From the NCBI GenBank assembly GCA_016235455.1, contig JACRKZ010000035.1, forward strand, positions 1 through 26,392: a DNA stretch of 26,392 nucleotides. The letters run 5' to 3'. Source of the DNA: Armatimonadota bacterium. GTDB taxonomy: Bacteria; Armatimonadota; UBA10988. The translations under genes were made by a program, and so were the position numbers. Every line of letters begins with the position of its first letter. Within the stretch, counting starts at the first letter, position 1. This document shows positions 2,830 through 26,100 of this stretch, piece by piece. A model generated the notes under the pieces. The model had not been told where the DNA came from, made no database searches, and saw only the letters and a program-made list of their open reading frames with translations.

Positions 2830-2844
2830 GCCACTGCTCCCAGG

Positions 2845-5496
2845 CTAGTCGCTCGCCGGGGCCAGGAGGGCATCCAACCGGCTGAGCGCCGTTTCATCCA
2901 AGCCGCCGCGCAGCGCCGCCTCGCGGTCGGCGGACAGTTGCGGCCAGTGTGCCAGCCAGAGCGCGGGCCGAGGGTCGCCGCCCAAGGCCAGGGCTTGCCG
3001 GGCCGCGGCGAGCGCCACGCCGGCATCGCTGGCCGTGACCATGGTCTCCAGCAGCAGCGGCAGGTCATCGGGCCCGAACTCGGCGTGGACGTTGAAGGCC
3101 ACCCACTGATAGGGCTGCTCGCCCACCGAGGCCATGCGCGTGAACCGCAGCAGGTCCCCGTCGTCCAGGGCACGGTCTTGCCCCGAGCGCAGGCTGGCCA
3201 ACTCAAAGTAGCACCCGGCGCCGTGCAGGTCTACCAACATACCGACAATCGCGTCGCGGTCATCGATGAACAGCGGCCCGTCGAGTCGGCCGCAGACATA
3301 ACCGGTCTCCGGCGCGCCGGCAGTCTCCACGCCCATGGCCATGCCGCGGCGCAGCAGCAGCCGCACGTAGCGGTTGGGCGCGAAGTCGGCCTTCTCCGCG
3401 AAGATGCGCTGGGGCAGCAGAATGCCGAAGCCTTGCAGTTTGGCGCGCTGCTGGCCATCCGGGCCAGCCTGGACGGATACGACAAAGCCTTCGTGCCAGG
3501 AGATGTCGACCGCGCGCAGTGCCTCGCGGGCCACGGCGGCGCAGGCGGCGGCCTCGGGGTCGCCTGTGCCTTCGGCGGCGACCAGGGCGGTGATCAGGTC
3601 GTTCACCGCCGGCCGGTCCTCGGGCGCTCGGCGCCAGGTCACAAACGCCGCGGCGAATTCCGACCAGGGCGCGCCCAGCTCGACGAACCAAGCCACCAAC
3701 CGGCGGCGGGCCGCCTCGTCCAGGCTGGTGTCGTTGAGCCGGCGCGTGAGCGCGGCGGACAGGCCCGGCAGTTCGCCCGGTTCGAACTGGTCGAGCATCT
3801 GGCACAGCTCGGCGGCGCTGGCCTGCTCGATGCGATGGTGCACGCCGGCGAACAGATTGGCGCCGATGCCGGCCAGTTCCACACGCAGTTCGTCGCGCGT
3901 GCGCAGCGACTCGACCAGCCGCAGCGCGGTGTTCATCTGCTGCTCGTCTGGCGCGGCGCTCGGCGCGGTGCGCTCCGCGGCGCGCGACAGCCAGTGCGTC
4001 ACCTCGGTGCGGGCGTCGGCGTCGGCCAGCAGCGCCTCCAACTGGCCCTGGTTCTGCAGGTGCCAGAGGCAGGCCCAGCCCGAGCGCTCCGGCAGGTCCT
4101 CGTCGCGCAACATGCGCAGCACGTCGTCCGGGCTCAGTCCGGTGGTCACCGGCTCCATGAGTCGCTGCACGACCTCAGCGTCGATGGCCTTGCCCCGAAT
4201 CTCCTGCAGCAGCGGCAGCAGCGACACGAGCACCTCGGCGGGCACCGGCTCCTCGCCGTCAAGCAGCGATTCCACCCAACTCGTGAAGGTCTCGGCATTG
4301 CCCGGCGCGGCCAGCGCGTTGGCCAGATCGGGATGGCCGCTCAGCGTGGGTACCAGCAGGCGCGTGAAGCCAGGCGACAGGCGGTCGCGCAGATGGTGGA
4401 GCTGATTGGCCAGGCTCTCGGCATCCAGGCTGGCCAGCAGCCGCGCCAGGCAACGGCGCAGCGGCGCGTGAAGCAGTTCGCGGCTCCACAGGTCGTCCAT
4501 GGTGGCGATGGCCGTGGTCATCACGTAGCCATAGCCCGAACGGCGCTGCTCCACATGCCGCACCACGCGCTGCAGCCAGGGCTCGGCCTCGGCGTCGCTG
4601 TCTTCTGACGAGAGCAGATTGTGGCAGGCAGGCACCGCCGCCAGGTTGCGCAGCAGGCTCAATCCGAACGGCAGCAGGTACTGCGTCCAGCGCACCGGGA
4701 AGCCTTCGGCCAGCAGCAGCTTGAGGCAGGCCACGGCGCCGGTCGATGTCTCCTGGTCCTCTTCGTCGACCGCGCGCACCAGCGCGTCGGCCATCTGAGA
4801 CAGGTAGATCTGCACCTCGTCGTCGAAGTAGACCTGCCGGATGCGGTCGACCAGTTCGCGGCGCGTGTCGGGCGATAGGCGCCGGTCGAACACGCGCGAC
4901 ACCAGCGCCGAGAGCGTGGCCCGCATGTTGCGTTCGGCCAACAGCCCGGCGGCGTGCGACGCTTCCTCGTCGAGGTCGGTCTTGTAGAGGATGCCCAGCA
5001 GGCGGCGGTTCTCCTCTTCGTCGTCACCCTCGCGGCGTTCGGTGCGTTGGGCCACGGGTTCGGGCGTCCAGTTGTCCGGCCGGGCCACGGCGGCGCGGAA
5101 GCCGCGCTCATCCTCGATGAGGAAGTTCAGCTCGATCTCGTCGCCCACGCGCAGGCTCTCCGAGCGCAGGTGCGGCACGAAGTCGGCGCGGCGGAACTTG
5201 ACGCGGAAGCCATCGTCCGTGAGCGCCACGCCGCCGTCGTCGTCGAGCAGCTCAATGCGCGCGTCGTAGCGGTCGACCTCGTCCAGCGCCGCCAGGGAGA
5301 TGTCTTCGGCCGTCAGCCCTTCGCGGTTCTGGCCGACCTGGAAGCGCACCGCGCAGCCCGGCGCCGGCGAGGCCGAGGTGCGGAAATGTGACAAGTGGAA
5401 GAACACATCCGACCCGTCCGAGCGGGTGATGAACCCGTACCCCTTGCGCGGATTGTAGAACTTGATGATCCCTAGCTCACGCCCATCACCGTCCAT
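2845..5496 (-). CDS. Large cold-shock/OB-fold domain protein (883 aa): N-terminal CSD, further degenerate OB-like segments, long alpha-helical core
   Basis: ORF 2845..5529, start moved to ATG 5496 (GGGAG upstream). The N-terminus GIIKFYNPRKGYGFITRSDGSDVFFHLSHF carries the CSD RNP1 (KGYGFI) and RNP2 (VFFH) motifs. The central part is Leu/Ala-rich and helical. Confidence 0.85.
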   Translation of the reverse strand: MDGDGRELGIIKFYNPRKGYGFITRSDGSDVFFHLSHFRTSASPAPGCAVRFQVGQNREGLTAEDISLAALDEVDRYDARIELLDDDGGVALTDDGFRVKFRRADFVPHLRSESLRVGDEIELNFLIEDERGFRAAVARPDNWTPEPVAQRTERREGDDEEENRRLLGILYKTDLDEEASHAAGLLAERNMRATLSALVSRVFDRRLSPDTRRELVDRIRQVYFDDEVQIYLSQMADALVRAVDEEDQETSTGAVACLKLLLAEGFPVRWTQYLLPFGLSLLRNLAAVPACHNLLSSEDSDAEAEPWLQRVVRHVEQRRSGYGYVMTTAIATMDDLWSRELLHAPLRRCLARLLASLDAESLANQLHHLRDRLSPGFTRLLVPTLSGHPDLANALAAPGNAETFTSWVESLLDGEEPVPAEVLVSLLPLLQEIRGKAIDAEVVQRLMEPVTTGLSPDDVLRMLRDEDLPERSGWACLWHLQNQGQLEALLADADARTEVTHWLSRAAERTAPSAAPDEQQMNTALRLVESLRTRDELRVELAGIGANLFAGVHHRIEQASAAELCQMLDQFEPGELPGLSAALTRRLNDTSLDEAARRRLVAWFVELGAPWSEFAAAFVTWRRAPEDRPAVNDLITALVAAEGTGDPEAAACAAVAREALRAVDISWHEGFVVSVQAGPDGQQRAKLQGFGILLPQRIFAEKADFAPNRYVRLLLRRGMAMGVETAGAPETGYVCGRLDGPLFIDDRDAIVGMLVDLHGAGCYFELASLRSGQDRALDDGDLLRFTRMASVGEQPYQWVAFNVHAEFGPDDLPLLLETMVTASDAGVALAAARQALALGGDPRPALWLAHWPQLSADREAALRGGLDETALSRLDALLAPASD

Positions 5497-5531
5497 GACA
5501 CCACTCTCCCGCCGAGCAATCAAGCCCAATG

Positions 5532-11686: not shown

Positions 11687-11729
11687 CCGTTCGCGGTTGT
11701 CCAACGAGTGTAGGGAGGGAACCAAGCCG

Positions 11730-14117
11730 GTGACGAGTTGGCACACCAGGCCGCAACGGCCGCGCCGCAGCAGTCTGCTGATGGTGCTGTTGGCGTTCGT
11801 CACCGCCCTGGCGGCCCAGCCGCAGGTGCCGCCGATCATCCCTGACCTGCCCACGCGGCCCGCGGAGCAGGCGCAGCCGCCCGAAGCCGTGCAGCCGCCG
11901 GCGGCCGTCGAGAACGACCTGCAGGCCGACAGCCGCACGCAGCCGGTGGAGTTCGGCGACACGCTCGACGTCACCGTGCCGCGCTATCCCGAGTTCACCA
12001 AGGCCTACGCCGTGGGCCGTGACGGTGCTATCGTCGTGGACATTGTCGGTCCGCTGCCCGTGCGCGGGCTCACCGCGCCGCAGGTGGAGCGGCTGCTCAC
12101 CGAGCGCCTGTCGCAATGGCTGCGGCAGCCCCAAGGCATCAGCGCCCGCATCGCCTCGCGCCGCATGAGCGTGCGCGTGCTGGGCCATGTCGAGGAGCCC
12201 GGCGCCAAGGTGCTGCCCAAGGGCGCCAGCGTGCAGGAAGCCATCGCCGCGGCGCGCGGGCTGGCGGTGGGCGCGGTCATGACGCGTATCGTCATTCGCC
12301 GGCAGCGCGACGGCTGGGTCGAGGAGCTGCCGTGCGACCTCAAGGCTTTCCTGGAGGGTCGCGGGCGCCTGCCCGAGCTGGCCCCGGGCGACGAGGTCTT
12401 TGTGCCCAAGATGGCCATCGACGGTGCGTTCGCGCGGCCGGTGACCACCGACGACATCGCCGCGGCCATGCCGGCGCCGAAGGTTCTGGTGCTCGGTGCG
12501 GTACGCACACCCGGCGAGCTCGTGCTACACGAGGGGGTCAGCCTGCCCGCCGCGCTGGCGCAGGCTGGCGGCGCACTGGAGACGGCCGACCTGGCGCGGG
12601 TGCGGCGCATCCCGGCGGGCCAGGGCGCGCCCGAACCGTTTGATCTGGCCGCCTGGCTGACCCAAGGCGGGCGCGCTCCGCTGCTGCGGGCCGGTGACGT
12701 GGTGGTCGTGCCCAGTCGTGAAACTATCGGGCCGGTGGTACGGGTGTCCGGTGCGGTGGCCAAGCCCGGCCCGGTACAGTTGATGCCTGGCAGCGATGTG
12801 CAGGCAGCCCTGGCCGCGGCGGGCGGTGCCTTGCCGGCGGCCGACCTGATGCGGGTGCAACTGCATCATCGCGACGGGCAGCAGATAGTTCGCGACATCA
12901 TCGACCTCGACCGCATACTGCGCGAGGGCAATCCGGCGGCGTTGGTCGCCGTGCGCGACGGTGACACGGTCTTTGTGCCGCGCGCCGCGGGCGTGGGCGC
13001 CGGTGGCGTCGCCACGGTGCATGTGTTCGGCGCGGTGCAGCGGCCGGGCGCCTATCCGCTGAGCGACACGCGCTCGGTGCTGGCGGCGTTGGCCATGGCC
13101 GGCGGACCGCTGCCCACGGCCGATGCGGAGCGCGTGGCCATCACGCGCGCCCCCGGCGTCGCGGGCGAACGGTTGCTGAGCTTCGACCTGCGCGCCTACC
13201 AGTCTGGACGTAGCGAGACCATGCCGCAACTGGGCGACGGCGACGTCGTCGAGGTACCCAGCTTCGAGGTCACGGTGACCGGCGAAGTGGTGCGGCCGGG
13301 CACTTGGCCGCTGCGCCCAGGCACCAACCTGGTCGAGGCGTTGGCCGCCGCCGGTGGTCCGAGCCCGACCGCCGACCTGGGTCGCGTCATCGTGGTGCGG
13401 CGTGTCGCCGCCGGGCAGCCGGCCAAGCGCGAGGCTGTGAACCTGCGATTGTACCTGAGCCAAGGCGACGGCCAGGCGGCCGCTCCGGCCGCGGTGCCAA
13501 CGCTGGGCGCGGGCGATCTGATCAGTGTCGAAGCCATGCCGGCCGACTCCCGCGCCGTGCTGGTGCTGGGCGCCGTGCAGCGGCCGGGCGCCATCTCCGT
13601 GGCCGACGACGGCATCACGTTGGTTTCGGCGTTGGCCCAGGCCGGCGGACTGCTGCCCACGGCCGACCGCGCCGCGGTGCGCGTGTTGCGCGTGGACCAG
13701 GGCCGCAACGAGTTGATTGCGCTGGCGCCGGTCCTGGCCGGCACGGCGACCATGCCGCGGGTCAGCCACGGCGATGTGGTCAATGTCGAGGAGACCGGCC
13801 GCGCGGGCAGTGGCGTCCTGGTGCTGGGCTCGGTCACCAAGCAAGGCTGGGTGTCACTCGGACCGGGCGTGCAGACCGTGTGGGACGTCATCGGCGCGGC
13901 CGGCGGCATCGCGCCAAACGCCAAGATCAGCAGCGTGCGCTGGGTCCACGTCGGTGGCAAGGCCGAGACTGTCGACCTGACCCGCTACATGCGCGGGCAG
14001 GCGGCGCCGGTGATGGCCGAGGGCGATGTGCTGGTCGTCGGCTACAACGCGCAGACGCGCTCGGTGTGGGAACGCATCCTGGAACTCATCCCCATGGTGA
14101 CCTGGTTCGTGAACTAG
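11730..14117 (+). CDS. Polysaccharide export protein (Wza/KpsD-like): Poly_export domain + 7 SLBB repeats
   Basis: GTG 11730 after AGGGAGG. Sec signal; GDTLDVTV...VGRDGAIVVDIVGPLPVRGLT export motif; seven V-x-V-x-G-x-V-x-x-(P/Q)-G...A-x-G...GD-x-V units; C-terminal amphipathic SVWERILELIPMVTWFVN. Confidence 0.9.
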   Translation: MTSWHTRPQRPRRSSLLMVLLAFVTALAAQPQVPPIIPDLPTRPAEQAQPPEAVQPPAAVENDLQADSRTQPVEFGDTLDVTVPRYPEFTKAYAVGRDGAIVVDIVGPLPVRGLTAPQVERLLTERLSQWLRQPQGISARIASRRMSVRVLGHVEEPGAKVLPKGASVQEAIAAARGLAVGAVMTRIVIRRQRDGWVEELPCDLKAFLEGRGRLPELAPGDEVFVPKMAIDGAFARPVTTDDIAAAMPAPKVLVLGAVRTPGELVLHEGVSLPAALAQAGGALETADLARVRRIPAGQGAPEPFDLAAWLTQGGRAPLLRAGDVVVVPSRETIGPVVRVSGAVAKPGPVQLMPGSDVQAALAAAGGALPAADLMRVQLHHRDGQQIVRDIIDLDRILREGNPAALVAVRDGDTVFVPRAAGVGAGGVATVHVFGAVQRPGAYPLSDTRSVLAALAMAGGPLPTADAERVAITRAPGVAGERLLSFDLRAYQSGRSETMPQLGDGDVVEVPSFEVTVTGEVVRPGTWPLRPGTNLVEALAAAGGPSPTADLGRVIVVRRVAAGQPAKREAVNLRLYLSQGDGQAAAPAAVPTLGAGDLISVEAMPADSRAVLVLGAVQRPGAISVADDGITLVSALAQAGGLLPTADRAAVRVLRVDQGRNELIALAPVLAGTATMPRVSHGDVVNVEETGRAGSGVLVLGSVTKQGWVSLGPGVQTVWDVIGAAGGIAPNAKISSVRWVHVGGKAETVDLTRYMRGQAAPVMAEGDVLVVGYNAQTRSVWERILELIPMVTWFVN
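13029..13666 (+). repeat. Intragenic near-identical DNA segments shared by SLBB repeats 4 and 6
   Basis: 13029-13052 vs 13569-13592 match 23/24; 13085-13123 vs 13628-13666 match 36/39 (offsets 540 and 543, in frame). Confidence 0.6.
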
Positions 14118-14131
14118 TCGGAGGTCCAATC

Positions 14132-15529
14132 GTGACCGGGAGTGCGCAGACCATGTCGACTGAACCGGGCTTTGATCTGGCGGTCTATGCGCGCGTGCTG
14201 CGTCGGCGGTTCCCGCTGTTCGCGGTGCCGGTGGTGCTGCTGACCTTGCTGGTCGGCGGCGGCAGCTTCATGCTGCCCGATATCTACCGCGCCACGGCCA
14301 CGGTCATCGTGCGGTCCGAGGGCGAGGCCACCAAGGGCCTGGCCGTGGCCACCGAGATCACCAAGCAGCTGGGTGGCGTGGTGCAGGCGTTGCGGCAGCC
14401 GGCGGAGCAGAAGCGGGCCTTCGAGACGGTCAAGAAGGACCGGCCCAGCCTCAGCCTCAACAGCGCCATCGAGGACTTCGAGAAGGGCCTGCTCATCGAG
14501 AGCAAAGAGGATGGGCAGGACCTGATCGTCACCATCTCCTTCACCAGCACCCCGCAATCCTACTGTCTGTCGGTCGTCAATGCCTTCGCCGCCGAGTTCA
14601 AGCGCTTGGGCGAGCAGTTGGTGGCCAACTCGCTCGACGTGTCGGTGGACTTCGTCTCATCACAACTGGCGACGCAGAAGCAGCGCATGGCCGACCTGGA
14701 GCAGCGGCGGCGCACAGTCGAGGGCCGGCTGGCCAGCGACCTGGGCGACCTGGCGGCGCGCATCGACGATCCCGATCTGCCCAAAGCCGTGAGCGACCGG
14801 CTGCGCGAGGACCAGGCCAACGTCGATCGGCTGGCCGCTCAGGTCGCCGCGCTGGAGACCCAGACCGCGCGGCTGCGGCAGGAGATCGCCACCACGTCGC
14901 CGACCTCGTCGGCCGTCGACCCGCCGGAAGGCTCGTCCGAAGCGAGGCTCGATGCGGCCATCGGCGAAGCCCGCAGCCGCCGCGCGGCACTGCTGGCGCG
15001 CTACACCGAGCAGCATCCGCAGGTGGCCGCCATCGACCGCGAACTGGTGGATCTGGAGCGCCGGCGCGCCGAGGCGCGTGCCGAAGCGCTGCGCCGCGGT
15101 CAACGGGCGCCCTCCAATCCGGCCTACGAACAGCTTCGCCGCGACCTGGTGCCGGTCGAGGGCCAGCTCGTCGCCGCGCGTACCGAGCGGAGCCGAGTTG
15201 AGGGCCGCGTGGCGCGGCTGTCGCGCATTGCCTCGGAGCTGCCGACGCTCGAGAAGGAGCTGTCCGGCCTCAAGACCGAGCAGGCCGCTGTCAAGGCGAC
15301 GTATGCGCAACTGCTCGAGCGCAAGCAGAACCTCGACGTGAACCAGAGCTTTGAGGAGAGCCGCGACAGCGGACGGTTCGAAGTGCGGCCCGCGGGCACG
15401 GTGCCGCCGCCGCCCAAGGTGGCCCCCGCGCGACCGACCTATCTCGCCGCCGGGCTGCTGGTCGGGCTGGCCATGGGTCTGGGCTTCGTGCTGCTGGCCG
15501 AATGGGGCGAGCGCTCTCAGCGCGTCTGA
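14132..15529 (+). CDS. Polysaccharide co-polymerase / chain-length determinant (Wzc/GumC-like, no kinase domain; 465 aa)
   Basis: GTG 14132, GGAGG 7 nt upstream. N-terminal TM + PDIYRATATVIV, long coiled coil with YTEQHPQV, Pro-rich segment then C-terminal TM; ends with no Walker A domain. Confidence 0.88.
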   Translation: MTGSAQTMSTEPGFDLAVYARVLRRRFPLFAVPVVLLTLLVGGGSFMLPDIYRATATVIVRSEGEATKGLAVATEITKQLGGVVQALRQPAEQKRAFETVKKDRPSLSLNSAIEDFEKGLLIESKEDGQDLIVTISFTSTPQSYCLSVVNAFAAEFKRLGEQLVANSLDVSVDFVSSQLATQKQRMADLEQRRRTVEGRLASDLGDLAARIDDPDLPKAVSDRLREDQANVDRLAAQVAALETQTARLRQEIATTSPTSSAVDPPEGSSEARLDAAIGEARSRRAALLARYTEQHPQVAAIDRELVDLERRRAEARAEALRRGQRAPSNPAYEQLRRDLVPVEGQLVAARTERSRVEGRVARLSRIASELPTLEKELSGLKTEQAAVKATYAQLLERKQNLDVNQSFEESRDSGRFEVRPAGTVPPPPKVAPARPTYLAAGLLVGLAMGLGFVLLAEWGERSQRV

Positions 15530-15540
15530 CGGAGTCTGCC

Positions 15541-16869
15541 ATGGGCCGCGACCAGCGCCTGATCGCCTGCGCCGCCGGCTCCGCGGCGGTGGTCGGCACG
15601 GCGTTGTTCTGGCTGATCGGCCACGGTCTGTCGCCGGAGCTGCTCATCGCGGCCGTGTTGGGCCTGGTGGTGGTGGTCGCGGCGCTCGTCGAGCCGTTCT
15701 GGGCGCTGCTCCTGCTGCTGGTGGTGGTCTACCTGCGGCCCGCCGACCGCCTGCCGGCGCTGGCGCCGTTCCGGCTGCAGTTGCTGATGATGGGCATCAC
15801 CGCGTTGTTTCTGATCATCCAGCAGTCGCTCGCCGATCGACCGCCCCGCCTGCGCCATCCCGCCAACGGCTGGGTGCTGGCCTTCCTGGCTGCGGGCCTG
15901 TGGGCCACGCTGCCGTCGCAGGGCCTGGCCTACACGGTCAAGGTGCTCAGTGAAGGCATCGGCAGCTCCATGCTGCTCTACTTCCTGGTGAGCAATCTGG
16001 CCCAGACCGGCCCGCGCTTGCGCGCGGTGGTGTGGACCCTCGGCGTGATGGGCGCGGTGAACGTGGTGCTGGCCGTGCTCTCACTACGCGCCGGCGGCAA
16101 CCAGTACGCCGGCCGCCTGGCCGGTGTCGGCCTGCTCAACGACCCCAACGATCTGGCGCTGAGCCTGGTCATGATCGTGCCGCTGCTGCTGGGGCTGTGG
16201 CAGGGCTCGCGTGGCCCGGCGCGGTTGGGTGCCGGCGGTCTGGCCGCGGTGCTGGTGGCGGGCATTCTGGGCACGCGGTCGCGCGGAGGTTTGCTGGCGC
16301 TGCTTGCGGTGCTGTTCCTCACGGGCTACCGGCGGATCCGTTCGCCGCGCTGGCGCGTGGTGTACGTCGTCCTGGCGCTGGCGCTGGCGCTGGGCACGGT
16401 GCATCGCGTCTTCGCCGCGCGCGGCTACGGTCTGACCAGCATGGGGCGCGACATCAGTGTGCAGGGGCGGTTGACGGCGTGGAAGGGCGGCCTGCGCATG
16501 ATGGCCGACCATCCGCTGCGCGGCGTCGGCCTGTATCAGTTCCCCACCGCGTTCCTGGCCTACCGGCCTAAGGACTTCGAGTTCGTTACGCTGACCGCGC
16601 ACAACAGCCTGATCCTGGTGGCTGGCGAGCTGGCCTGGCCCGGTCTGTTGACGTTCCTGCCGCTGCTGGGCACGCTGCTCGTGGCGGCGGCGCGGGCCCG
16701 ACGGCAGGCGCCGGAGCGCGATGAGCCCGAGCTGCGGCAGTCGGTGGAGTTGTGTCTGGCCGGCTGGATGGTGGCGGCGATGTTCCTGTCGCAGAGCTAC
16801 CATGTCTGGCTGTATATCGGGGCCGGCCTGGTGGTGGCTGCCGATCGCGGCAGGGAGACAGCGCGATGA
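15541..16869 (+). CDS. O-antigen ligase / Wzy polymerase family membrane protein (442 aa)
   Basis: ATG 15541 after GGAG; multiple TM segments; NDPNDLAL, TRSRGG, HPLRGVG, TAHNS motifs of the Wzy_C family. Confidence 0.88.
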   Translation: MGRDQRLIACAAGSAAVVGTALFWLIGHGLSPELLIAAVLGLVVVVAALVEPFWALLLLLVVVYLRPADRLPALAPFRLQLLMMGITALFLIIQQSLADRPPRLRHPANGWVLAFLAAGLWATLPSQGLAYTVKVLSEGIGSSMLLYFLVSNLAQTGPRLRAVVWTLGVMGAVNVVLAVLSLRAGGNQYAGRLAGVGLLNDPNDLALSLVMIVPLLLGLWQGSRGPARLGAGGLAAVLVAGILGTRSRGGLLALLAVLFLTGYRRIRSPRWRVVYVVLALALALGTVHRVFAARGYGLTSMGRDISVQGRLTAWKGGLRMMADHPLRGVGLYQFPTAFLAYRPKDFEFVTLTAHNSLILVAGELAWPGLLTFLPLLGTLLVAAARARRQAPERDEPELRQSVELCLAGWMVAAMFLSQSYHVWLYIGAGLVVAADRGRETAR

Positions 16870-18578
16870 GGCGGTTCCGGCTGGTGGTGGCGGTCATTCT
16901 GGCGCTGGCGACGGTGGCGCTGCTACGCTACGCGAGCCACGACACGCCGCGCGCGCGGGCGCGCCAGACCAGCGTGTGGGCAGTGTCGGACCTGGTCACC
17001 GTGCGGCCCGACGACGCGCCGACCGCGAGCAACGCGGTGTGGGACGGCAAGTCGGTGCGGCTGCAGGCGGCCCGCAACGAGGTGGTGGCGTGGCAGGTGG
17101 CGCTGCGCCCGGCCAGTCCGGTCGCCGCCGGGCAAGTGACCTTGCCGGTGCTGACCAGCGACAAGGCCAGGCTGCCCGCCGAAGCCGTGACGGCCTTCAC
17201 AGAGCACCTGCTGACGGTCAAGGTGCCCAGTCAGGAGTCGGAGAGCAAACCTGCGTTGGGCCAGATGGGTGTCGGCGAGTTCGCCAACCAGCTTCTGCCG
17301 CTCATACCGGGCGACGCCAAGCACGGCACGTTCCAGGCCGCCGCGGGCCGTGCTGCCGCGCTATGGTTCGAGGTGGTCGTGCCGACCGACGTGGCGCCGG
17401 GCCTGTATCGCGGCACGCTGGCCCTGACGCTGATGCCCGGCCAGAAGGTCGACGTGCCGGTGGAATTGCGCGTGCTGGCACTGACACTGCCGCGCGAGAC
17501 GCATCTGCGCAACTGGTTCTACTACGGACCGGAGCAGCTGGAGGGCTTCTACGGCGCCGGCGGCAAGGCCGTCGAGTCAAGCTTCCGCCGCCTGGCCCAC
17601 GACCATCGCATCAACCTGGCCCCTGAGCTGTACCCACCGTCTGACGCCGCGCGGCGCGCCGCCTGGTGGTCGGAGCAGCATCCTTGGATCGACGGCACGG
17701 CCTACGAAGCTGGCCCGTGCGCCGGGGTGGCGCAGCCGGTGGTGCCCATCGGTCTGCCCGACCGCGAGCAGGCCACGGTCGAAGCCGTCGCGCGCGCTGC
17801 GGTGGCCGCGGCTGGCGAGCATGGCCTGGGCGACCGACTGCTGCTGTATGGCTACGACGAGCCGAACGACCGCGAAGCCTACGACGCGGTGCGCCGCATC
17901 GGCCGCTGGGTCGACGACACCGTGGGTGATCGGCTGCCGCTGATGGTCACGGAGTCTATCGCGCCGCAGGACCCGGCCTGGGGCAGCCTCGAGCCGGCGG
18001 TGGACATCTTCTGCTCGGCCCAGTCGAGTTCGTCGGACATGCGCCGCTGGCACGAGCGCGGCGGCAAGGTGTGGGTCTACAACGGCGGCCTGGCCGGCCC
18101 GGGCCTCATCGACTGCCCGCTGACCGGCGTGGCGGCTTGGGGGCCGTGCGCCTGGCGGTTCGATCTCGATGGCTGGTTCCAGTGGGACACGCTCTACTGG
18201 CGCCAGAAGCACGTTGGCGCGGAACACCTGACCGACCTCTACGTCGAACCACTGACGTTCGACGAGACGCTCAAACGGCGCGCCGACGGCAGCCTGTATC
18301 CGGCCCGCGATGCGCTGCGGCTCAACGGCGACGGCGTCTGGTTCTACCCCGGCGAGCCGGTGGGCCTGGCTGGCCCGGTGGCCACGCTGCGCGCCAAGGC
18401 CTTCCGGCGGGGCGCGCAGGACTACGAATACCTGTGGCTCCTGGCTCAGAAGGGCCAGCGCACGCGCGCCGGCGAGTTGGCCAGGCGCCTGTCCACGGGC
18501 CGCTTCAGTTACGAGACCGACGCCGATGCGTGGTCGCAGGTACGCGCCGAGGCGGCGCGCCTGTTGGTCGGAGAGTGA
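16866..18578 (+). CDS. Exported/anchored GH123-like (DUF4091) glycoside hydrolase (570 aa)
   Basis: ATG overlaps the upstream stop (ATGA). N-terminal hydrophobic segment; AARNEVVAWQV, VPTDVAPGLYRGTL, YGYDEP (adjacent acidic pair), NGDGVWFYPG...LRAKAFRRGAQDYEYLWLL (DUF4091-type C-terminus). Confidence 0.8.
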   Translation: MRRFRLVVAVILALATVALLRYASHDTPRARARQTSVWAVSDLVTVRPDDAPTASNAVWDGKSVRLQAARNEVVAWQVALRPASPVAAGQVTLPVLTSDKARLPAEAVTAFTEHLLTVKVPSQESESKPALGQMGVGEFANQLLPLIPGDAKHGTFQAAAGRAAALWFEVVVPTDVAPGLYRGTLALTLMPGQKVDVPVELRVLALTLPRETHLRNWFYYGPEQLEGFYGAGGKAVESSFRRLAHDHRINLAPELYPPSDAARRAAWWSEQHPWIDGTAYEAGPCAGVAQPVVPIGLPDREQATVEAVARAAVAAAGEHGLGDRLLLYGYDEPNDREAYDAVRRIGRWVDDTVGDRLPLMVTESIAPQDPAWGSLEPAVDIFCSAQSSSSDMRRWHERGGKVWVYNGGLAGPGLIDCPLTGVAAWGPCAWRFDLDGWFQWDTLYWRQKHVGAEHLTDLYVEPLTFDETLKRRADGSLYPARDALRLNGDGVWFYPGEPVGLAGPVATLRAKAFRRGAQDYEYLWLLAQKGQRTRAGELARRLSTGRFSYETDADAWSQVRAEAARLLVGE

Positions 18579-21900: not shown

Positions 21901-23229
21901 TTACCAGGTAATGCCGAGCACGCGCGCCGCTTCGTCCGGCGTGGTCACCCCGTCGATCACCAGCCGCGCCGCATGGCCCTGCATGGTGGGCAACGTGCCG
22001 GTGAAGGCTAGTTCGCGCAGCGTGGGCTCGGGTTCGCGCGCGGCGATGGCGTCGGCCAGCGCGCTGCTGACCTCGACGATCTCATAGACACCGGTGCGGC
22101 CGCGGAATCCGCTCTGGTGGCACGCCGTGCAGCCCCGGCCGCGGCGCCACGGGATGCCGCGGTCGGCGATGCCCAATGCCTCGGCCACGCTGGCAGCCAG
22201 CGGCGCGCGCACCTCCTCGGCACACTCGGGGCAGACCTTGCGCACCAGCCTCATGCCGACGATGCCACGCAGCGAACTGCTTACCAGGAACGGCTCCAGC
22301 CCGACGTCGAGCAGGCGCGAGATGGTGGCCACAGCGTTGTAAGTGTGCAGCGTGGTCAGCGCCAGGTGCCCGGTGATGGCGCATTGCACCAGCATCTGCA
22401 GGCTCTCCAGGTCGCGGATCTCGCCGACCATGATCACATCGGGATCCTGCCGCAGCACCGCGCGTAACAGGTAGGCAAAGGTGACGCCGCGCGCCGGGTT
22501 GACACTGGATTGCGCCACCCAGGGCAGGTCGAACTCGACGGGATCCTCGACCGACACGCAGTTGATCGCCTCACCGGCCAGCAAGCGCACGAGCGCATAG
22601 AGCAGCGTGGTCTTGCCCGAGCCGGTGGGCCCGGTGACCGTCACCATCCCGTGGGGCAGTCTAGCCAGTCGCTGCAGAGCGGCTTCCTCTTCGGGGAACA
22701 GCCCGAGCTTGTCCCACGGCGCGAGGGCCGTGGTCTGGTCCAGGATGCGCGCGCACAGGCGCCCACCGTGGATTCCCGGCAGGAAGCTGCCGCGCAGGTC
22801 AAGGCGCTTTTCGCCGTGCCCGAAGGCCAGGCGGCCGTCGGCCGGCAGGTCGGTGTTCTCCGGCGGCATGGCGAACAGCGTCTTGAACCGCGCCAGGACC
22901 GCGCGCGCCGCGGCGATGGGCAAGCGGTCGACCTCGTGCAGCGCGCCGTCGATGCGCAGGCGCACCACGCCGCCGTCGCGCTCCAGGTCGAGGTGGACAT
23001 CGCTGGCACCGGCCTCGATGCCGCGCCGCAGGTAGTCGTTGGCCCGCCGCACGGTGGAGTCCTCGGTGGACTCCGTGACGATACGCAGCACCTCGCGGGT
23101 GCGCTCCAGCAGGTCGCGCAGGCGCTCGTCGCGTGCCAGCCGGGCATCGATCGCACCGCTCTCGGCAGCGGTCAGTTGGCCGCGTAGATAGGCCACCAGG
23201 TCGTCTTGGGTCGGGCTGAAGTCAGACAT
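21901..23229 (-). CDS. PilB/GspE-family secretion ATPase with N-terminal anti-sigma-like helical domain (442 aa)
   Basis: ATG 23229 (AGGAG upstream, 8-nt overlap with the sigma gene). GASDVHL, RLRIDGALH, PADGR, Walker A GPTGSGKTT, Asp box SVEDPVE, LRQDPDVIMVGEIRD, His box TGHLALTTLHT, CPEC...CTAC Zn motif, GRTGVYE. N-terminus DDLVAYLRGQLTAAESGAIDARLARDERLRDLLERTR. Confidence 0.9.
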   Translation of the reverse strand: MSDFSPTQDDLVAYLRGQLTAAESGAIDARLARDERLRDLLERTREVLRIVTESTEDSTVRRANDYLRRGIEAGASDVHLDLERDGGVVRLRIDGALHEVDRLPIAAARAVLARFKTLFAMPPENTDLPADGRLAFGHGEKRLDLRGSFLPGIHGGRLCARILDQTTALAPWDKLGLFPEEEAALQRLARLPHGMVTVTGPTGSGKTTLLYALVRLLAGEAINCVSVEDPVEFDLPWVAQSSVNPARGVTFAYLLRAVLRQDPDVIMVGEIRDLESLQMLVQCAITGHLALTTLHTYNAVATISRLLDVGLEPFLVSSSLRGIVGMRLVRKVCPECAEEVRAPLAASVAEALGIADRGIPWRRGRGCTACHQSGFRGRTGVYEIVEVSSALADAIAAREPEPTLRELAFTGTLPTMQGHAARLVIDGVTTPDEAARVLGITW

Positions 23230-23773
23230 CGTCCATCTCCTGGAGAACGGCGCGCAAGCGGCGCCGCGCGGCATGGAGCCGCGACTTGATCGTGCCGAGC
23301 GGCACGCCGAGCTGGTCGGCGGCGATGCGTTCGGGCAGGTGCTGCTCGGCCACCAGACGCAAGACGTCGCGCTGGTGGGCGGGCAGCGTCGCCGTGGCCG
23401 CAACCAGGCGCCGATGGGCCTCGCGCTGTTGGGCCGCGAGGGCGGCGTCGACAGCGGGTGGTTCGGGCACTTGGTCGAGCGGCTCGGTGGCGCGCCGCGC
23501 CTCGCGGCGGCGCAGGTTGAGCCAGTGGTGTTCGGCACGACGCAGCACGAAGGCCGCGAAGCGGCCCGTGGCGCGGTAGTCAGCGCGGCTGGTCCAGAGC
23601 GCGATGAGCAGATCCTGGACCGCGTCGTCCACCGCGGCGGCATCGCCGAGTAGCGGTGAGAAGTAGCCGGCCAGGCGCGGCCGCCAGCGGCAGACGAGCT
23701 GCGCGAACGCGTCGGCATCGTCATGATCCCGGATGCGCTCCATCAGCTCGGCATCGCTCAGGCAGTCGACCAT
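23222..23773 (-). CDS. ECF-family RNA polymerase sigma factor
   Basis: SDAELMERIRDHDDADAFAQLV, region 2 VDDAVQDLLIALW...FAAFV, region 4 LPAHQRDVLRL...IAADQLGVPLGTIKSRLHAARRRLR. Start is ATG 23773 (GGAG 8 nt upstream) or GTG 23779. Confidence 0.93.
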   Translation of the reverse strand: MVDCLSDAELMERIRDHDDADAFAQLVCRWRPRLAGYFSPLLGDAAAVDDAVQDLLIALWTSRADYRATGRFAAFVLRRAEHHWLNLRRREARRATEPLDQVPEPPAVDAALAAQQREAHRRLVAATATLPAHQRDVLRLVAEQHLPERIAADQLGVPLGTIKSRLHAARRRLRAVLQEMDDV

Positions 23774-23791
23774 CGGCACGGCTCCACCTGA

Positions 23792-23818
23792 TCAGGTCGC
23801 GGCCGGCGCCAAGGTTCA
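23792..23818 (-). promoter_or_regulatory. Candidate ECF-type autoregulatory promoter
   Basis: Minus strand TGAACC (23818-23813) - 16 nt - CCTGA (23796-23792) directly upstream of the ECF gene; the AAC-containing -35 is typical of ECF promoters. Confidence 0.45.
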
Positions 23819-23831
23819 CGCACCGGCGCGG

Positions 23832-25091
23832 TCAGGTGCCGTTCTTCGCGATCTCTTGCCGCAGGCGGTCGGCCTGCGCCTTGTCGAGCGTGTCCAGCAG
23901 CCGGGCCTGCTCGCCGGCCAACGACTTGTGGCCCAGGTTCAGGTAGGTGATACCCAAGGCGTAGCGCAGGTTGGCATGCCGACCGTCGAACGACAGCCCC
24001 TTCTGGCAGGCGGCCAGTGCGTCGTCATAGCGGCCAAGCGAGTTGAAGCAATCGGCCAGGTTGGAGTAGGCCAGCGCCATGTCGGGCTTGAGCGACAGCG
24101 CCTTGTTCAGATAGCCGATGGCCTCGTCGGTGCGCTTCTGGCGGAAGCTGACCACGCCCAGATTGTTGAAAGCGATGGCCAGCGTGGGATCGATCTTCGT
24201 CGCGCGCAGGTAGCATTCGCCGGCGCGGTCCAGATTGCCCAGCTTCTCATGGCAGATGGCCATGCGCAGCCACACATCGGCCACATCAGGGTCGCGCCTG
24301 GTCGACTCCTCGAAATAGCCGAGCGCGCCCTCGAAGTCGCCGCGGCTGAAGGGCCGCAGGCTGCACTTGTCGAGCAGTGCCGTGGAGCTGGCGCGCCAGT
24401 CGCCCGGCACTTCCTTGGCGCAGTCGGCCAGACTGCGCATCGGACCGGCGCGGAGCGCCTGGATGTAGGATGCCGGCACGGCGAAATTGAGTCCCTGGCC
24501 CGCGGCGACCACCTTGTTGTCGGTGGTGATCGTGCTGGTCTGCATACCGACCACCTGGCCTTGGACATTGAAGACCGGTCCGCCGCTGTTGCCCGGCGAG
24601 ATGGCTGCCGTGTGTTGCAGTACCGTGCCCAGCGTGGGCAGCTCGCGCAGCGCCGAGATGATCCCGACCGAGCTGGTCCATTCGAGGCCCAGCGGCCCGC
24701 CAATGAGCAGCACGGTCTCGCCTTCGGCCGGGAGCGCGGCGGTGGTGGCCAGGGGCGTCACATCGATGAACGAGCGGTCCAGCGCGCAGAGGGCCAAATC
24801 CCAGTTGCGTTCCTCGGCCAGCAGCCCCACGATTTTTGCATAGCGGCCGTCGGCCAAACGGATCTCGGCGCGATCGCAGCCGCCGAGGACGTGGCGGCAG
24901 GTGACCATGCGGTCGGGTCCGATGAGCCAGCCCGTGCCGGTGCCTGGCAGCGCCTTGGCCGGGTCGTAGGCCACAATCGACACGACAGCCGGCTTCACCG
25001 TGCGGATCAACTCCGGCAGATCGGCTGCCGCGGTAACACCACACGCCAGCCAAATCACCAACCAACAGACTGACGGACGCCGCATCTTCAT
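23832..25091 (-). CDS. Exported trypsin-like (S1C/Trypsin_2) serine protease with C-terminal TPR repeats (about 419 aa)
   Basis: Signal MKMRRPSVCWLVIWLACGVTAAA; catalytic triad motifs VTCRHV, DLAL, ISPGNSGGP; about 5 TPRs (AIAFNNLGVV, ALAYSNLAD, LRYALGITY). Alternative start at 25085. Confidence 0.9.
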   Translation of the reverse strand: MKMRRPSVCWLVIWLACGVTAAADLPELIRTVKPAVVSIVAYDPAKALPGTGTGWLIGPDRMVTCRHVLGGCDRAEIRLADGRYAKIVGLLAEERNWDLALCALDRSFIDVTPLATTAALPAEGETVLLIGGPLGLEWTSSVGIISALRELPTLGTVLQHTAAISPGNSGGPVFNVQGQVVGMQTSTITTDNKVVAAGQGLNFAVPASYIQALRAGPMRSLADCAKEVPGDWRASSTALLDKCSLRPFSRGDFEGALGYFEESTRRDPDVADVWLRMAICHEKLGNLDRAGECYLRATKIDPTLAIAFNNLGVVSFRQKRTDEAIGYLNKALSLKPDMALAYSNLADCFNSLGRYDDALAACQKGLSFDGRHANLRYALGITYLNLGHKSLAGEQARLLDTLDKAQADRLRQEIAKNGT

Positions 25092-25094
25092 CGA

Positions 25095-25107
25095 TGCTAT
25101 GATAGCA
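25095..25107. promoter_or_regulatory. Palindromic bidirectional extended -10 element
   Basis: TGCTAT-G-ATAGCA reads TG-C-TATGAT on + and TG-C-TATCAT on -, inside a 31-bp divergent intergenic gap. Confidence 0.6.
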
Positions 25108-25122
25108 CTGGGAGTCGTAAAC

Positions 25123-26100
25123 ATGAGGGTGGTTCTGGTCGGCGGTTCGGGCCATGGGTTCAACCACCTTCAGGTCTGGCGGAAGCTCCCCGGACTGACG
25201 CGACTGACGGTCGTTGGCCGCGATACCGGCCGGTTGGCCGAGCTCGCCGCGCAGTACGAAGTGGCTACCAGCCTCGACCTTGCCGCGGCGCTAAGCGAAG
25301 CCGATCTGGTGGACATCGCCACTCCCACGGATACCCATTTCGACCTCGCGCGCCAGGCTGTTGCCGCCGGCGTGCCGACCATCGTCGAGAAGCCGGCGTG
25401 CCGCACCGTGGCCCAGGCCGAGGCGCTGGCCGCCGAGGCCGGCTCGACGCCGCTGGCCTGCGTGCTCAACTACCGCTGCTCGCCTGTCTGGCTGCGGGCG
25501 CGTGAGTTGGTGGCGTGGGGCGCCATCGGCCGGCCGCTGTTGTCCATGTGGCCGGTGCTGGCCGACAACCGGCACCTCATGGTGGGTGATGGCTTCCGCG
25601 CCGATGCCGCGCGCGGCGGTGGCGCGCTGCTTGACGGCGCGTTCCACATCGTGGGCCTGATGCCGTGGGTGCTGGGTACGCCGATGCGCGCCGTGACCGC
25701 CTGGCTGGGTCGCCTGGCCAGCGCGCCGCCCGCCGGCGAGGACACTGCCATGGCCATCTATGAGCACGATGGCGGCGCGGCGCAACTGACCTACTCGTGG
25801 GCAGTGCCCAATCCGGCGCGCATGCCCGCCGCCACGCTTATCGGCACGGATGCCACGCTGCTCGTGCCGCGCTCGGCCAAGCAGCCCATCGAGCTCATCC
25901 GCGACCGCGAGACCAGCGAAGTCGACCTGGGCGAGTACCGCACCTGGCCGCGCAACGACCTGGGCAACGCGCTGACGCGCTTCGCCGACAACCCCGCCGC
26001 GGCCGCGGGCGAGACTTGGGCCGCCGCTCTGGGGATGCAACGCATGGTGGAGCAGACTGAACTCGCCGCCTCGACGGGCGCCCGCGTCGTGCTCGGATGA
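25123..26100 (+). CDS. Gfo/Idh/MocA family oxidoreductase (325 aa)
   Basis: ATG 25123 after GGGAG; Rossmann-like VVLVGGSGHG, DLVDIATPTDTH, IVEKP, NYR, GGGALLDGAFH, GEDTA. Confidence 0.92.
   Translation: MRVVLVGGSGHGFNHLQVWRKLPGLTRLTVVGRDTGRLAELAAQYEVATSLDLAAALSEADLVDIATPTDTHFDLARQAVAAGVPTIVEKPACRTVAQAEALAAEAGSTPLACVLNYRCSPVWLRARELVAWGAIGRPLLSMWPVLADNRHLMVGDGFRADAARGGGALLDGAFHIVGLMPWVLGTPMRAVTAWLGRLASAPPAGEDTAMAIYEHDGGAAQLTYSWAVPNPARMPAATLIGTDATLLVPRSAKQPIELIRDRETSEVDLGEYRTWPRNDLGNALTRFADNPAAAAGETWAAALGMQRMVEQTELAASTGARVVLG

Follow-up and report, generated by a model that had tools for sequence, protein, structure and literature searches.

Results

Organisation of the locus

The window, by which we mean the whole 26,392-nucleotide stretch of DNA analysed here (Armatimonadota bacterium, contig JACRKZ010000035.1), carries on its minus strand a gene for an ECF sigma factor, followed by a gene whose product joins an anti-sigma domain (ASD) to a pilus-type ATPase. 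This two-gene architecture is confirmed, and comprises the following features:

23792..23817, minus strand: ECF-type promoter-like element (GAACCTT, 11 nt, CGACCTGA) upstream of the sigma gene
23222..23779, minus strand: ECF (group IV) sigma gene (Pfam Sigma70_r2 39.4 bits, Sigma70_r4_2 40.7 bits)
21901..23229, minus strand: ASD-ATPase gene, 442 aa, with its ATG 8 nt inside the sigma gene
23065..23229, minus strand: predicted zinc-free class I anti-sigma domain, residues 1-55 (alignments, hhalign, AF2 models, VIA-align)
21925..23055, minus strand: GspE/PilB-type ATPase core with N2 and C-terminal ATPase domain, residues 59-435 (PF00437)
22609..22632, minus strand: Walker A motif GPTGSGKT, residues 200-207 (motif inspection)

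The sigma factor possesses regions 2 and 4 only, as is typical of the ECF type (group IV), and passes the TIGR02937 sigma70-ECF model with 67.5 bits (cut-off 42.9); its best NCBIfam equivalog, PRK12513, stays at 83.9 and thus under the cut-off of 206. Translation probably begins at the ATG at 23773, which yields 183 aa, is conserved across the clade and corresponds to the form on record in a public protein collection; the alternative GTG at 23779 would yield 185 aa. The overlap with the ATPase gene described in the earlier note is seen in the ORF coordinates: it comprises 8 nt (ATGTCTGA, 23229..23222), and a GGAG lies upstream of the ATPase ATG. Because the genes overlap in this way, they are probably co-transcribed. 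Neither a terminator nor a sigma-70-type promoter was detected at their junction or downstream of the second gene.

Pfam scans of the 17 further ORFs of the window detected no pilC/gspF, pilin or secretin family, in agreement with the earlier note. These ORFs include polysaccharide export genes, transporters, a STAND NTPase and metabolic enzymes. Clustering across 15 loci leaves only the sigma factor and the ATPase as conserved (the remaining clusters are shadow ORFs), without any platform, pilin or secretin gene conserved nearby. Likewise, none of the genes that flank the cassette in the window (trypsin-like/TPR, amidohydrolase, GATase, Gfo/Idh, GH123-like) has a counterpart at the 15 related loci, apart from a single match of TPR to TPR.

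A GspE/PilB-type core without the N1 domain

The T2SSE domain (PF00437) covers residues 59-435 with an E-value of 1.3e-98 and 330.5 bits (cut-off 24.9). Besides Walker A, the Asp box EDPVE, Walker B (DPDVIMVGEIRD), the His box TGHLALTTLHT and a CxxC...CxxC tetracysteine site are intact, and with a domain above the cut-off and all four catalytic motifs the protein is a member of the T2SSE superfamily. The AF2 model of the 442-aa protein has a mean pLDDT of 89.2, and Foldseek matches its ATPase to PilF (5oiu_B, E 6.5e-46, TM 0.79/0.90) as well as to EpsE and Geobacter PilB; solved GspE, PilB and PilF structures share 35-38% identity with it, at TM values of up to 0.90. The protein had been described before as a complete PilB/GspE ATPase devoid of a transmembrane segment and of an MshEN/N1D domain, and our data bear this out: Pfam gives no T2SSE_N/MshEN (N1) match in the 442 residues, and the highest 19-residue Kyte-Doolittle mean, 1.58, lies inside the P-loop helix and indicates no transmembrane segment.

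One reading of such a core is that the cassette serves to produce the ATPase, which would itself be a functional motor of a pilus or secretion machine: unengaged ATPase would sequester the sigma factor and limit its own synthesis, and there would be no separate regulon. The intact catalytic motifs, the tetracysteine site and the structural match to PilF, PilB and EpsE speak for this explanation. However, the protein lacks the N1/T2SSE_N domains of canonical GspE and PilB and falls far short of the NCBIfam equivalog cut-offs for GspE (TIGR02533, 367.4 versus 630.25) and PilB (TIGR02538, 334.3 versus 675.65), the matches beginning at model positions 87 and 160, respectively. A quick tree places the ASD-ATPases on long branches outside a tight clade of 28 canonical PilB proteins; this tree carries long-branch warnings, needs at least 3-4 label changes and does not show the ASD-ATPases to be monophyletic. 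Moreover, 6 of 23 aligned members bear one catalytic substitution each (Walker A K to R in two, Walker B E to A in one, the His box in three), which implies that ATP hydrolysis may not be needed everywhere. Considering also that the genome already holds three stronger PilB/GspE paralogues and that no machinery gene is conserved beside the cassette, we find it unlikely that an accessory motor under feedback control is what the locus encodes, although the promoter searches reported below provide one further argument in its favour.

A zinc-free anti-sigma domain at the N-terminus

The N-terminal peptide quoted in the earlier note is present as written, and the domain that it belongs to consists of three helices (residues 8-15, 21-33 and 35-54). 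Searches with this segment by itself return little: residues 1-70 alone gave no anti-sigma match against Pfam and PDB sequences, the window's own N-terminus has no Pfam match to zf-HC2 at E <= 10, and a word-based search with the N-domain retrieved three proteins only (itself, P0002 and P0003). The best rows for residues 1-70 alone, GAUT_1 (0.0038) and GDP-6-deoxy-D-mannose reductase (0.018), were taken as chance.

The affinity of the domain emerges from its relatives. The window N-terminus is colinear in alignment with relatives carrying C..HxxxCxxC, and three of seven aligned members pass the Pfam zf-HC2 (PF13490) cut-off of 22.2 bits (L011 31.6, L031 44.5 and L033 45.2 bits); zinc-free family members reach 12.6-17.7 bits. 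The profile comparison with anti-sigmas that had been proposed is positive by this route: hhalign links the window clade to zinc-type family members at 97.4% (E 9.7e-12) and to 10 ordinary sigma-linked transmembrane anti-sigmas from other phyla at 93% (E 3.5e-7). Compared with the PDB, the family profile finds RslA (3hug_B, 7.4e-6), DdvA (0.0018), RsiW (0.0087) and ChrR (0.02). A VIA-align comparison of the model of residues 1-62 (pLDDT 79.7) with 48,161 PDB chains returned four chains at Z >= 5, all of them anti-sigma domains solved with a sigma (RslA 6.2, RsiW 5.8, MucA 5.3, RskA 5.1), in a range below 8 that can reflect a common helical arrangement. Foldseek found nothing at E <= 0.001 for the N-domain model, and the two rows at E 7.2 are both anti-sigmas. 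An ordinary GspE N1 subdomain, the result by which the earlier note would have been refuted, is thus not present; the comparisons instead support residues 1 to about 55 as a zinc-free class I anti-sigma domain with detectable homology to known ones.

The earlier assignment stands with respect to anti-sigma homology, but its zf-HC2-like label does not. The four zinc-ligand columns read S/R/D/L in the window protein, which has neither Cys nor His there, and the ZAS/zf-HC2 signature (H-x3-C-x2-C with an upstream Cys, above 22.2 bits) is found in relatives and is missing from the window. Since the four ligands are absent, the domain is best classed as a non-zinc ASD and not as a strict zf-HC2/ZAS member.

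The earlier note had further supposed that the domain holds the neighbouring sigma factor, and an interface between the two is indeed predicted, but weakly. With the window's own sequences, complex prediction of sigma and ASD scored 0.58 against 0.33 for the best control, which we grade as weak support: 58 of 80 solved complexes attain the mark applied, as do 2 of 110 mismatched pairs, and scores of 0.60 or less come from 7 of those 80 together with both mismatches that passed. At least 96% of the contacts agree between runs and the partner has a pLDDT of 74 or more; since structures of sigma/anti-sigma complexes have been solved, however, the pass may come from memorised examples. We infer that the anti-sigma domain binds the adjacent sigma factor.

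Distribution and conservation of the cassette

Of 401 sampled Armatimonadota genomes, 42 (about a tenth) carry the cassette, at 43 loci that span at least 19 family codes. A family-specific sigma gene lies immediately upstream in 42 of the 43 loci (29 of 30, and 13 of 13 further ones), with junctions that range from overlaps of 4-29 nt to gaps of 2-108 nt. The adjacency is more than chance, and the genome search suggested earlier has shown homologous ATPases to be linked to ECF genes. PF13490 and PF00437 stand together in 33 of 34 database matches. Public annotation lists family members as 'GspE/PulE family protein', 'Flp pilus assembly complex ATPase component TadA' or 'T2SS/T4P/T4SS family ATPase', and their anti-sigma part has been overlooked.

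The C..HxxxCxxC motif is kept in 31 of the 43 family members, and all four zinc ligands are lost at 12 of the 43 loci, which belong to at least five family codes and have retained the sigma gene in all twelve cases. The ATPase is kept in every complete member, whether a zinc site is present or not. Loci that are zinc-free and nevertheless carry the ATPase argue, together with the intact catalytic motifs of the window protein, that the ATPase matters and that zinc or redox sensing is not the shared mechanism. An RsrA-like switch, in which oxidised ZAS cysteines release the sigma factor and the ATPase is incidental, could invoke the 31 members with an intact motif, and PMC7406223 reports that zinc motifs are over-represented among soluble class I anti-sigmas. 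Such a switch is, however, impossible for the window protein because no Cys or His occupies the four positions, and the retention of the ATPase irrespective of the zinc site speaks against it as well; we consider it hardly credible.

Alternatively, the loss of the zinc site in the window clade may have ended sigma binding, and the gene would be an orphan PilB-like paralogue beside an ECF sigma gene. The replacement of all four ligands and the missing Pfam zf-HC2 match agree with such a decay, as does a paralogue in the same genome, sister to the window protein, which has no ASD and possesses a degenerate Walker B and His box. On the other hand, G002, G003 and P0002 share with the window's own genome (G000) the 8-nt overlap as well as a conserved promoter and N-domain sequence, and N-domain identity, where measured (P0002, P0003/G002), is 76-87% compared to 72% overall. 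The twelve zinc-free loci all have their sigma gene, the complex prediction was weakly passed with the window's own sequences, and about 44% of class I anti-sigma domains are without a zinc motif according to PMC7406223. A vestigial domain is consequently an improbable explanation.

Promoter and putative regulon

The promoter-like element lies at the same distance from the sigma ATG in G002 and G003. Of 28 upstream regions, 24 contain a two-block GAAC...CGTT/CATT/CGAC pattern, which was defined after the data were seen; 500 shuffles gave a mean of 0.66 (maximum 4). The cassette is probably autoregulated via this conserved ECF-type promoter. In seven genomes (G000, G002 and five f22 genomes) the operon's own copy is the single exact match to the motif, and this is the further argument for the feedback-controlled motor mentioned above.

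Motif searches of the genomes did not find a regulon beyond the operon. The pattern with up to two mismatches shows no clear excess over controls in most genomes, and with one mismatch the excess in f1 genomes resembles coding sequence. Relaxed motifs gave six further non-coding candidates in the window's own genome, none of them convincing, one being located 179 nt upstream of a prepilin-like gene. A motif-like site that is conserved upstream of a secreted 220-aa protein in two g33 genomes is ambiguous, as it also contains TATAAT. Armatimonadota genomes are described in PMC4959169 and PMC4072686 as having many ECF sigmas and pseudopilins and few operons; this would fit a regulon that is scattered and difficult to detect.

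Discussion

Proposed mechanism

We propose that the two genes form a self-contained, autoregulated sigma/anti-sigma cassette in which the ATPase body controls sigma release, a reading to which we assign a probability of roughly 65%. The ECF sigma factor would be co-produced with a soluble 442-aa protein, in which no linker domain separates the anti-sigma domain from the N2 and C-terminal core of a hexameric-type ATPase; the ATPase would stand where ordinary anti-sigmas have their transmembrane or periplasmic sensor. The anti-sigma domain would keep the sigma factor inactive on the ATPase until a change in the ATPase body (its nucleotide-bound, oligomeric or docked state) sets it free, and the freed sigma factor would transcribe at least its own operon from the GAACC...CGAC/CGTT promoter. 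Computation shows the architecture, the homology of the individual parts, the close and conserved gene linkage and the conserved promoter directly; that the state of the ATPase controls sigma release, and that the sigma factor may have targets beyond its own operon, is our inference. The release routes put forward in the earlier note, namely nucleotide state, docking on the pilus platform or hetero-oligomerisation with the true PilB, are conjectural.

A more specific version of the cassette reading, drawn by analogy and quite tentative, is that the ATPase hexamer is a sigma-sequestering platform, which could signal directly to RNA polymerase how a type IV pilus or T2SS is operating, or the ATP/ADP state of the cell. 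Such a checkpoint would resemble that of FlgM/sigma-28; it would have come about by fusion of the anti-sigma domain to a motor paralogue, with up to six sigma factors per ring and their release on docking or nucleotide exchange.

Comparison with known systems

The inputs known for anti-sigmas are membrane or periplasmic domains, redox-active zinc sites and small ligand-binding modules. If our reading is correct, a hexameric motor ATPase would constitute a new class of input for ECF signalling, and a direct wire would run from a family of ATP-driven machines to transcription. The earlier note knew of no characterised example, and our literature searches likewise found no paper on a fusion of an anti-sigma with PilB or GspE; an anti-sigma domain on a pilus or secretion motor ATPase thus appears to be undescribed in print. 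The word 'ATPase' does not occur in the main texts of PMC7826278 and PMC7406223, and the latter paper mentions 132 ASDI subgroups that were discarded for Pfam domains making an anti-sigma role unlikely ('data not shown'). With no more than two genes and a promoter that can be recognised, the cassette lends itself to reconstruction and testing in vitro or in E. coli, for which the source organism need not be cultured.

Class I anti-sigmas such as RslA, RsiW, RskA, ChrR and MucA share with the window protein the N-terminal three-helix domain, the position of the gene right after that of the ECF sigma, and profile similarity, to which a similar fold may be added tentatively. In contrast to them, the window copy is zinc-free, and it continues into a cytoplasmic GspE/PilB core where they have either a small cupin or redox module or a transmembrane helix plus periplasmic sensor. 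With the extension ATPases GspE, PilB and PilF of T2SS and type IV pili it has the N2 and C-terminal core and all motifs in common, but it differs in the missing N1/T2SSE_N/MshEN domain, the lack of platform, pilin or secretin genes alongside, and its long branch. In Myxococcus xanthus, PilB is a signalling protein for exopolysaccharide production according to PMC5544727. This is a comparable case of a pilus assembly ATPase that passes information to a regulatory pathway; however, the canonical PilB acts through other proteins, whereas here a dedicated paralogue would itself carry the predicted transcription-factor-binding domain. The working analogy for reading the status of a machine is FlgM/sigma-28, in which the hold of the anti-sigma is tied to the state of flagellar assembly: FlgM is small, secreted and not fused to a motor ATPase, and the link of the window protein to a machine is conjectural.

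Organization of the gene pair

The 6.5-Mb draft genome (70% G+C) to which the window (contig C36) belongs contains an ECF sigma factor gene and, directly after it, the gene of an ATPase with an N-terminal anti-sigma domain (ASD-ATPase), an arrangement that the earlier note had read correctly, coordinates included:

23779..23222, minus strand: ECF sigma gene, likely start ATG at 23773
23229..21901, minus strand: ASD-ATPase gene, 442 aa

The ATG of the ASD-ATPase lies 8 nt within the sigma gene (bases common to both: ATGTCTGA), and the two genes are translationally coupled. The sigma start at 23773 is kept in the two closest relatives and yields a 183-aa protein, the form present in the public protein collection. 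Pfam recognises Sigma70_r2 and r4_2 in the sigma factor and T2SSE (PF00437) on residues 59-435 of its partner. Three absences had also been claimed and are borne out: T2SSE_N/MshEN has no Pfam match in the 442-aa protein, no TM-like stretch was found in it, and Pfam scans of 17 other window ORFs revealed no pilC/gspF, pilin or secretin families.

Other genes of the window are:

23832-25163, minus strand: secreted trypsin-like peptidase with TPR repeats, ending 14 nt before the sigma promoter element
11697-18578, plus strand: polysaccharide export/assembly cluster (Wza-like protein with six SLBB stretches, Wzz-like, Wzy_C O-antigen ligase-like and GH123-N-like proteins)
1-5529, minus strand: STAND NTPase (nSTAND1) with HEAT repeats, beside an 894-aa protein in which an N-terminal cold-shock domain is the sole recognised part

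The trypsin-like/TPR neighbour is not kept at other loci. In genome G038 the protein divergent from the sigma gene resembles the TPR region of the peptidase (34% over 106 aa), the TPR parts alone matching.

Distribution of the cassette

The pair of sigma and ASD-ATPase genes is a cassette co-inherited across a phylum. When a profile built on the first ~100 residues was searched against 401 Armatimonadota genomes, the matches separated sharply: 42 matches in 41 genomes span the model from its start with E <= 1e-18, and generic PilB matches, covering the ATPase part only, come next at ~1e-15. With one borderline match (genome G336), which is also a member, the total rises to 43 loci, found in 42 genomes that represent at least 19 family codes. 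A sigma factor recognised by a family-specific profile is encoded directly upstream in 29/30 and 13/13 of the loci examined, genome G210 holding the sole locus without it, so that the genome search proposed in the earlier note returned a recurrent pair (42 of 43). Across 15 loci with flanks, sigma factor and ATPase are conserved and nothing else. By record titles the phylum is Armatimonadota, except for one record labelled Desulfobulbus sp. and two without a phylum. In a large protein collection, 33 of the 34 matches to the zinc-type N-domain described below combine PF13490 with PF00437; the source names of these proteins give the ATPase alone.

Some loci deserve separate mention. In G003 a frameshift beyond about residue 95 breaks the ASD-ATPase (L003:1498-3119, minus strand) in two, and the sigma factor of G388 (L154:1123-1856, plus strand) is in two frames; both splits are either assembly errors or decay. 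Genome G035 has two cassette copies, both of zinc type (L033 on G035:C278 and L161 on G035:C432).

Identity of the N-terminal domain

Searched alone, the N-terminal segment of the window's protein found no anti-sigma match in Pfam or in a PDB sequence search; its identity could be settled because relatives resolve what this segment alone does not. The same gene pair occurs in other Armatimonadota families, whose ATPases start with a textbook C..H-x3-C-x2-C motif. The window's protein is colinear with these zinc-type members along its entire length, the four ligand positions being S, R, D and L. Three of seven aligned members pass zf-HC2 (31.6, 44.5 and 45.2 bits; Pfam cut-off 22.2), and zinc-free members score 12.6-17.7 bits. 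A profile of the first 62 residues of the window clade matches the zinc-type N-termini (97.4%, E 9.7e-12) as well as ten ordinary anti-sigmas (93%, E 3.5e-7), which are sigma-linked, single-pass membrane proteins of other phyla. Among solved structures the family profile found RslA, DdvA, RsiW and ChrR.

The AF2 model of residues 1-62 (pLDDT 79.7) consists of three helices. Compared with 48,161 representative chains, it reaches Z >= 5 with four only, RslA (6.2), RsiW (5.8), MucA (5.3) and RskA (5.1), all of them anti-sigma domains solved with their sigma factor; for a helical domain such scores are modest, and Foldseek on its own gave no significant match to this model, so that the predicted fold is supporting rather than decisive. 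Given the alignment of relatives and the zf-HC2, profile and structure comparisons, the domain is a class I anti-sigma domain of a zinc-free kind. The anti-sigma assignment of the earlier note is thus upheld as regards class I. Its zf-HC2 part is not: the motif defining the ZAS/zf-HC2 subfamily is absent, and the domain should be kept out of that subfamily.

The ATPase body

The full-length AF2 model (pLDDT 89.2) resembles PilF, EpsE and Geobacter PilB (35-38% identity, TM up to 0.79/0.90). Walker A, Asp box, Walker B, His box and tetracysteine site all conform to the canonical pattern in the window's protein, in agreement with the complete PilB/GspE ATPase described previously; among 23 aligned family members, six have a single substitution at a catalytic position. 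The NCBIfam scores are well below the equivalog cut-offs (367 versus 630 for GspE, 334 versus 676 for PilB), and the matches start at model positions 87 and 160, therefore the usual N-terminal domains are absent. Three stronger PilB/GspE paralogues exist elsewhere in the genome. A quick tree places 28 canonical PilB together in a compact clade with short branches; the ASD-ATPases fall outside it on long branches, their monophyly not being supported.

Several related ATPases lack the anti-sigma domain. A PilB-like paralogue of ~382 aa in the window's own genome (L150; C169:32636-33832, plus strand) reads ISDLPD in the Walker B region versus VGEIRD in the window's protein, has a degenerate His box, is sister to the ASD-ATPases of the window and G002 (99 SH-aLRT, long branch), and seems to be a duplicate that has decayed. 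At L073:8557-9726 (plus strand) a second PilB-like ATPase, lacking an anti-sigma domain, lies immediately downstream of its genome's ASD-ATPase. At L025:1306-2814 (plus strand; G037:C137) a GspE/PilB-type ATPase bears an HTH_17 DNA-binding domain (56.1 bits) where an N1 or anti-sigma domain would be. Armatimonadota may more generally have joined regulatory domains to a GspE/PilB core.

Promoter and regulon

A two-block ECF-type element precedes the sigma gene in 24/28 loci, a descriptive count, as the pattern was defined post hoc (shuffled control: mean 0.66, maximum 4). In most lineages it reads GAAC(C/A)TTTT, 10 nt, GC(G/A)TTCT; in the window, as in G002 and G003, it is GAACYT(Y), 11 nt, CGACCTGA. 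An exact match is found a single time, at the operon, in each of seven genomes, namely the window's own, G002 and five f22 genomes; G003 has one additional, coding-sequence-like match. Relaxed motif searches found no credible further targets. Autoregulation of the cassette appears well supported, because the conserved element precedes the sigma gene and exact matches sit at the operon. That the operon is the sole exact match is also consistent with the main rival reading, in which the cassette has the ATPase as its output and the sole role of the anti-sigma domain is negative feedback on ATPase synthesis; we consider this unlikely.

A weak window-clade promoter match at C169:67765 (minus strand) in the window's genome, 179 nt ahead of a gene whose product has a prepilin-type N-terminus (LTLVELIVALAL), is probably due to chance. 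A cassette-promoter-like site, GAACATTTTCATTT..TGCGTCTTATAAT, is kept in two genomes of one genus (L146:2109, minus strand, G362; L147:1241, plus strand, G062), 46-52 nt before the gene of a secreted protein of ~220 aa; given the TATAAT within it, it may be an ordinary promoter.

Proposed sigma binding and release

The complex prediction suggested in the earlier note does yield an interface between sigma factor and anti-sigma domain, scoring 0.58 versus 0.33 for the best control (contact agreement >= 96%, partner pLDDT >= 74). The mark it attains is reached by 58/80 solved complexes and 2/110 mismatches; scores of 0.60 or under comprise just 7/80 solved complexes and both passing mismatches, and the pass may reflect memory of solved sigma/anti-sigma complexes. 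The prediction is thus a weak one, hinting that the domain may bind its cognate sigma factor.

We favour, with a probability of roughly two in three, a cognate soluble anti-sigma that has the ATPase as its regulatory module. The domain would hold its sigma factor on a cytoplasmic protein with an intact GspE/PilB core, and release would be controlled by the ATPase body. The zinc site is present in 31 of the 43 loci and lost in 12, which fall into at least five family codes, and every locus retains the ATPase; both facts argue for the ATPase, not zinc/redox sensing, as the shared mechanism. Judging from the scattered catalytic substitutions and the long branches, motor work may be less important than nucleotide binding and oligomeric state. 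That the protein signals the energy state, or the status of a pilus or secretion machine, is a tentative and rather doubtful extension.

Comparison with known systems

ECF sigma factors, class I anti-sigma domains and GspE/PilB cores are each already known; full-text literature searches found no description of their combination. FlgM/sigma-28 offers an analogy for an anti-sigma that reports on a machine. An unfused neighbourhood is found in another phylum: in an Anaerolineales MAG (L079:6290-11263, plus strand) the genes of an ECF sigma factor and of a small TM anti-sigma of zinc type directly precede those of two small predicted-secreted proteins, a canonical pilB and, after it, a pilC-like gene (named by eye). 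The main texts of two large ECF/anti-sigma surveys (PMC7826278, PMC7406223) do not mention an ATPase; the latter dropped 132 subgroups, which are unlisted, with 'unlikely' Pfam domains. The nearest published concept is that of M. xanthus PilB taking on a signalling role (PMC5544727). Our analysis, which should be of high interest to researchers working on ECF signalling and on type IV pili, contributes the zinc-free form, a count across the phylum and the promoter.
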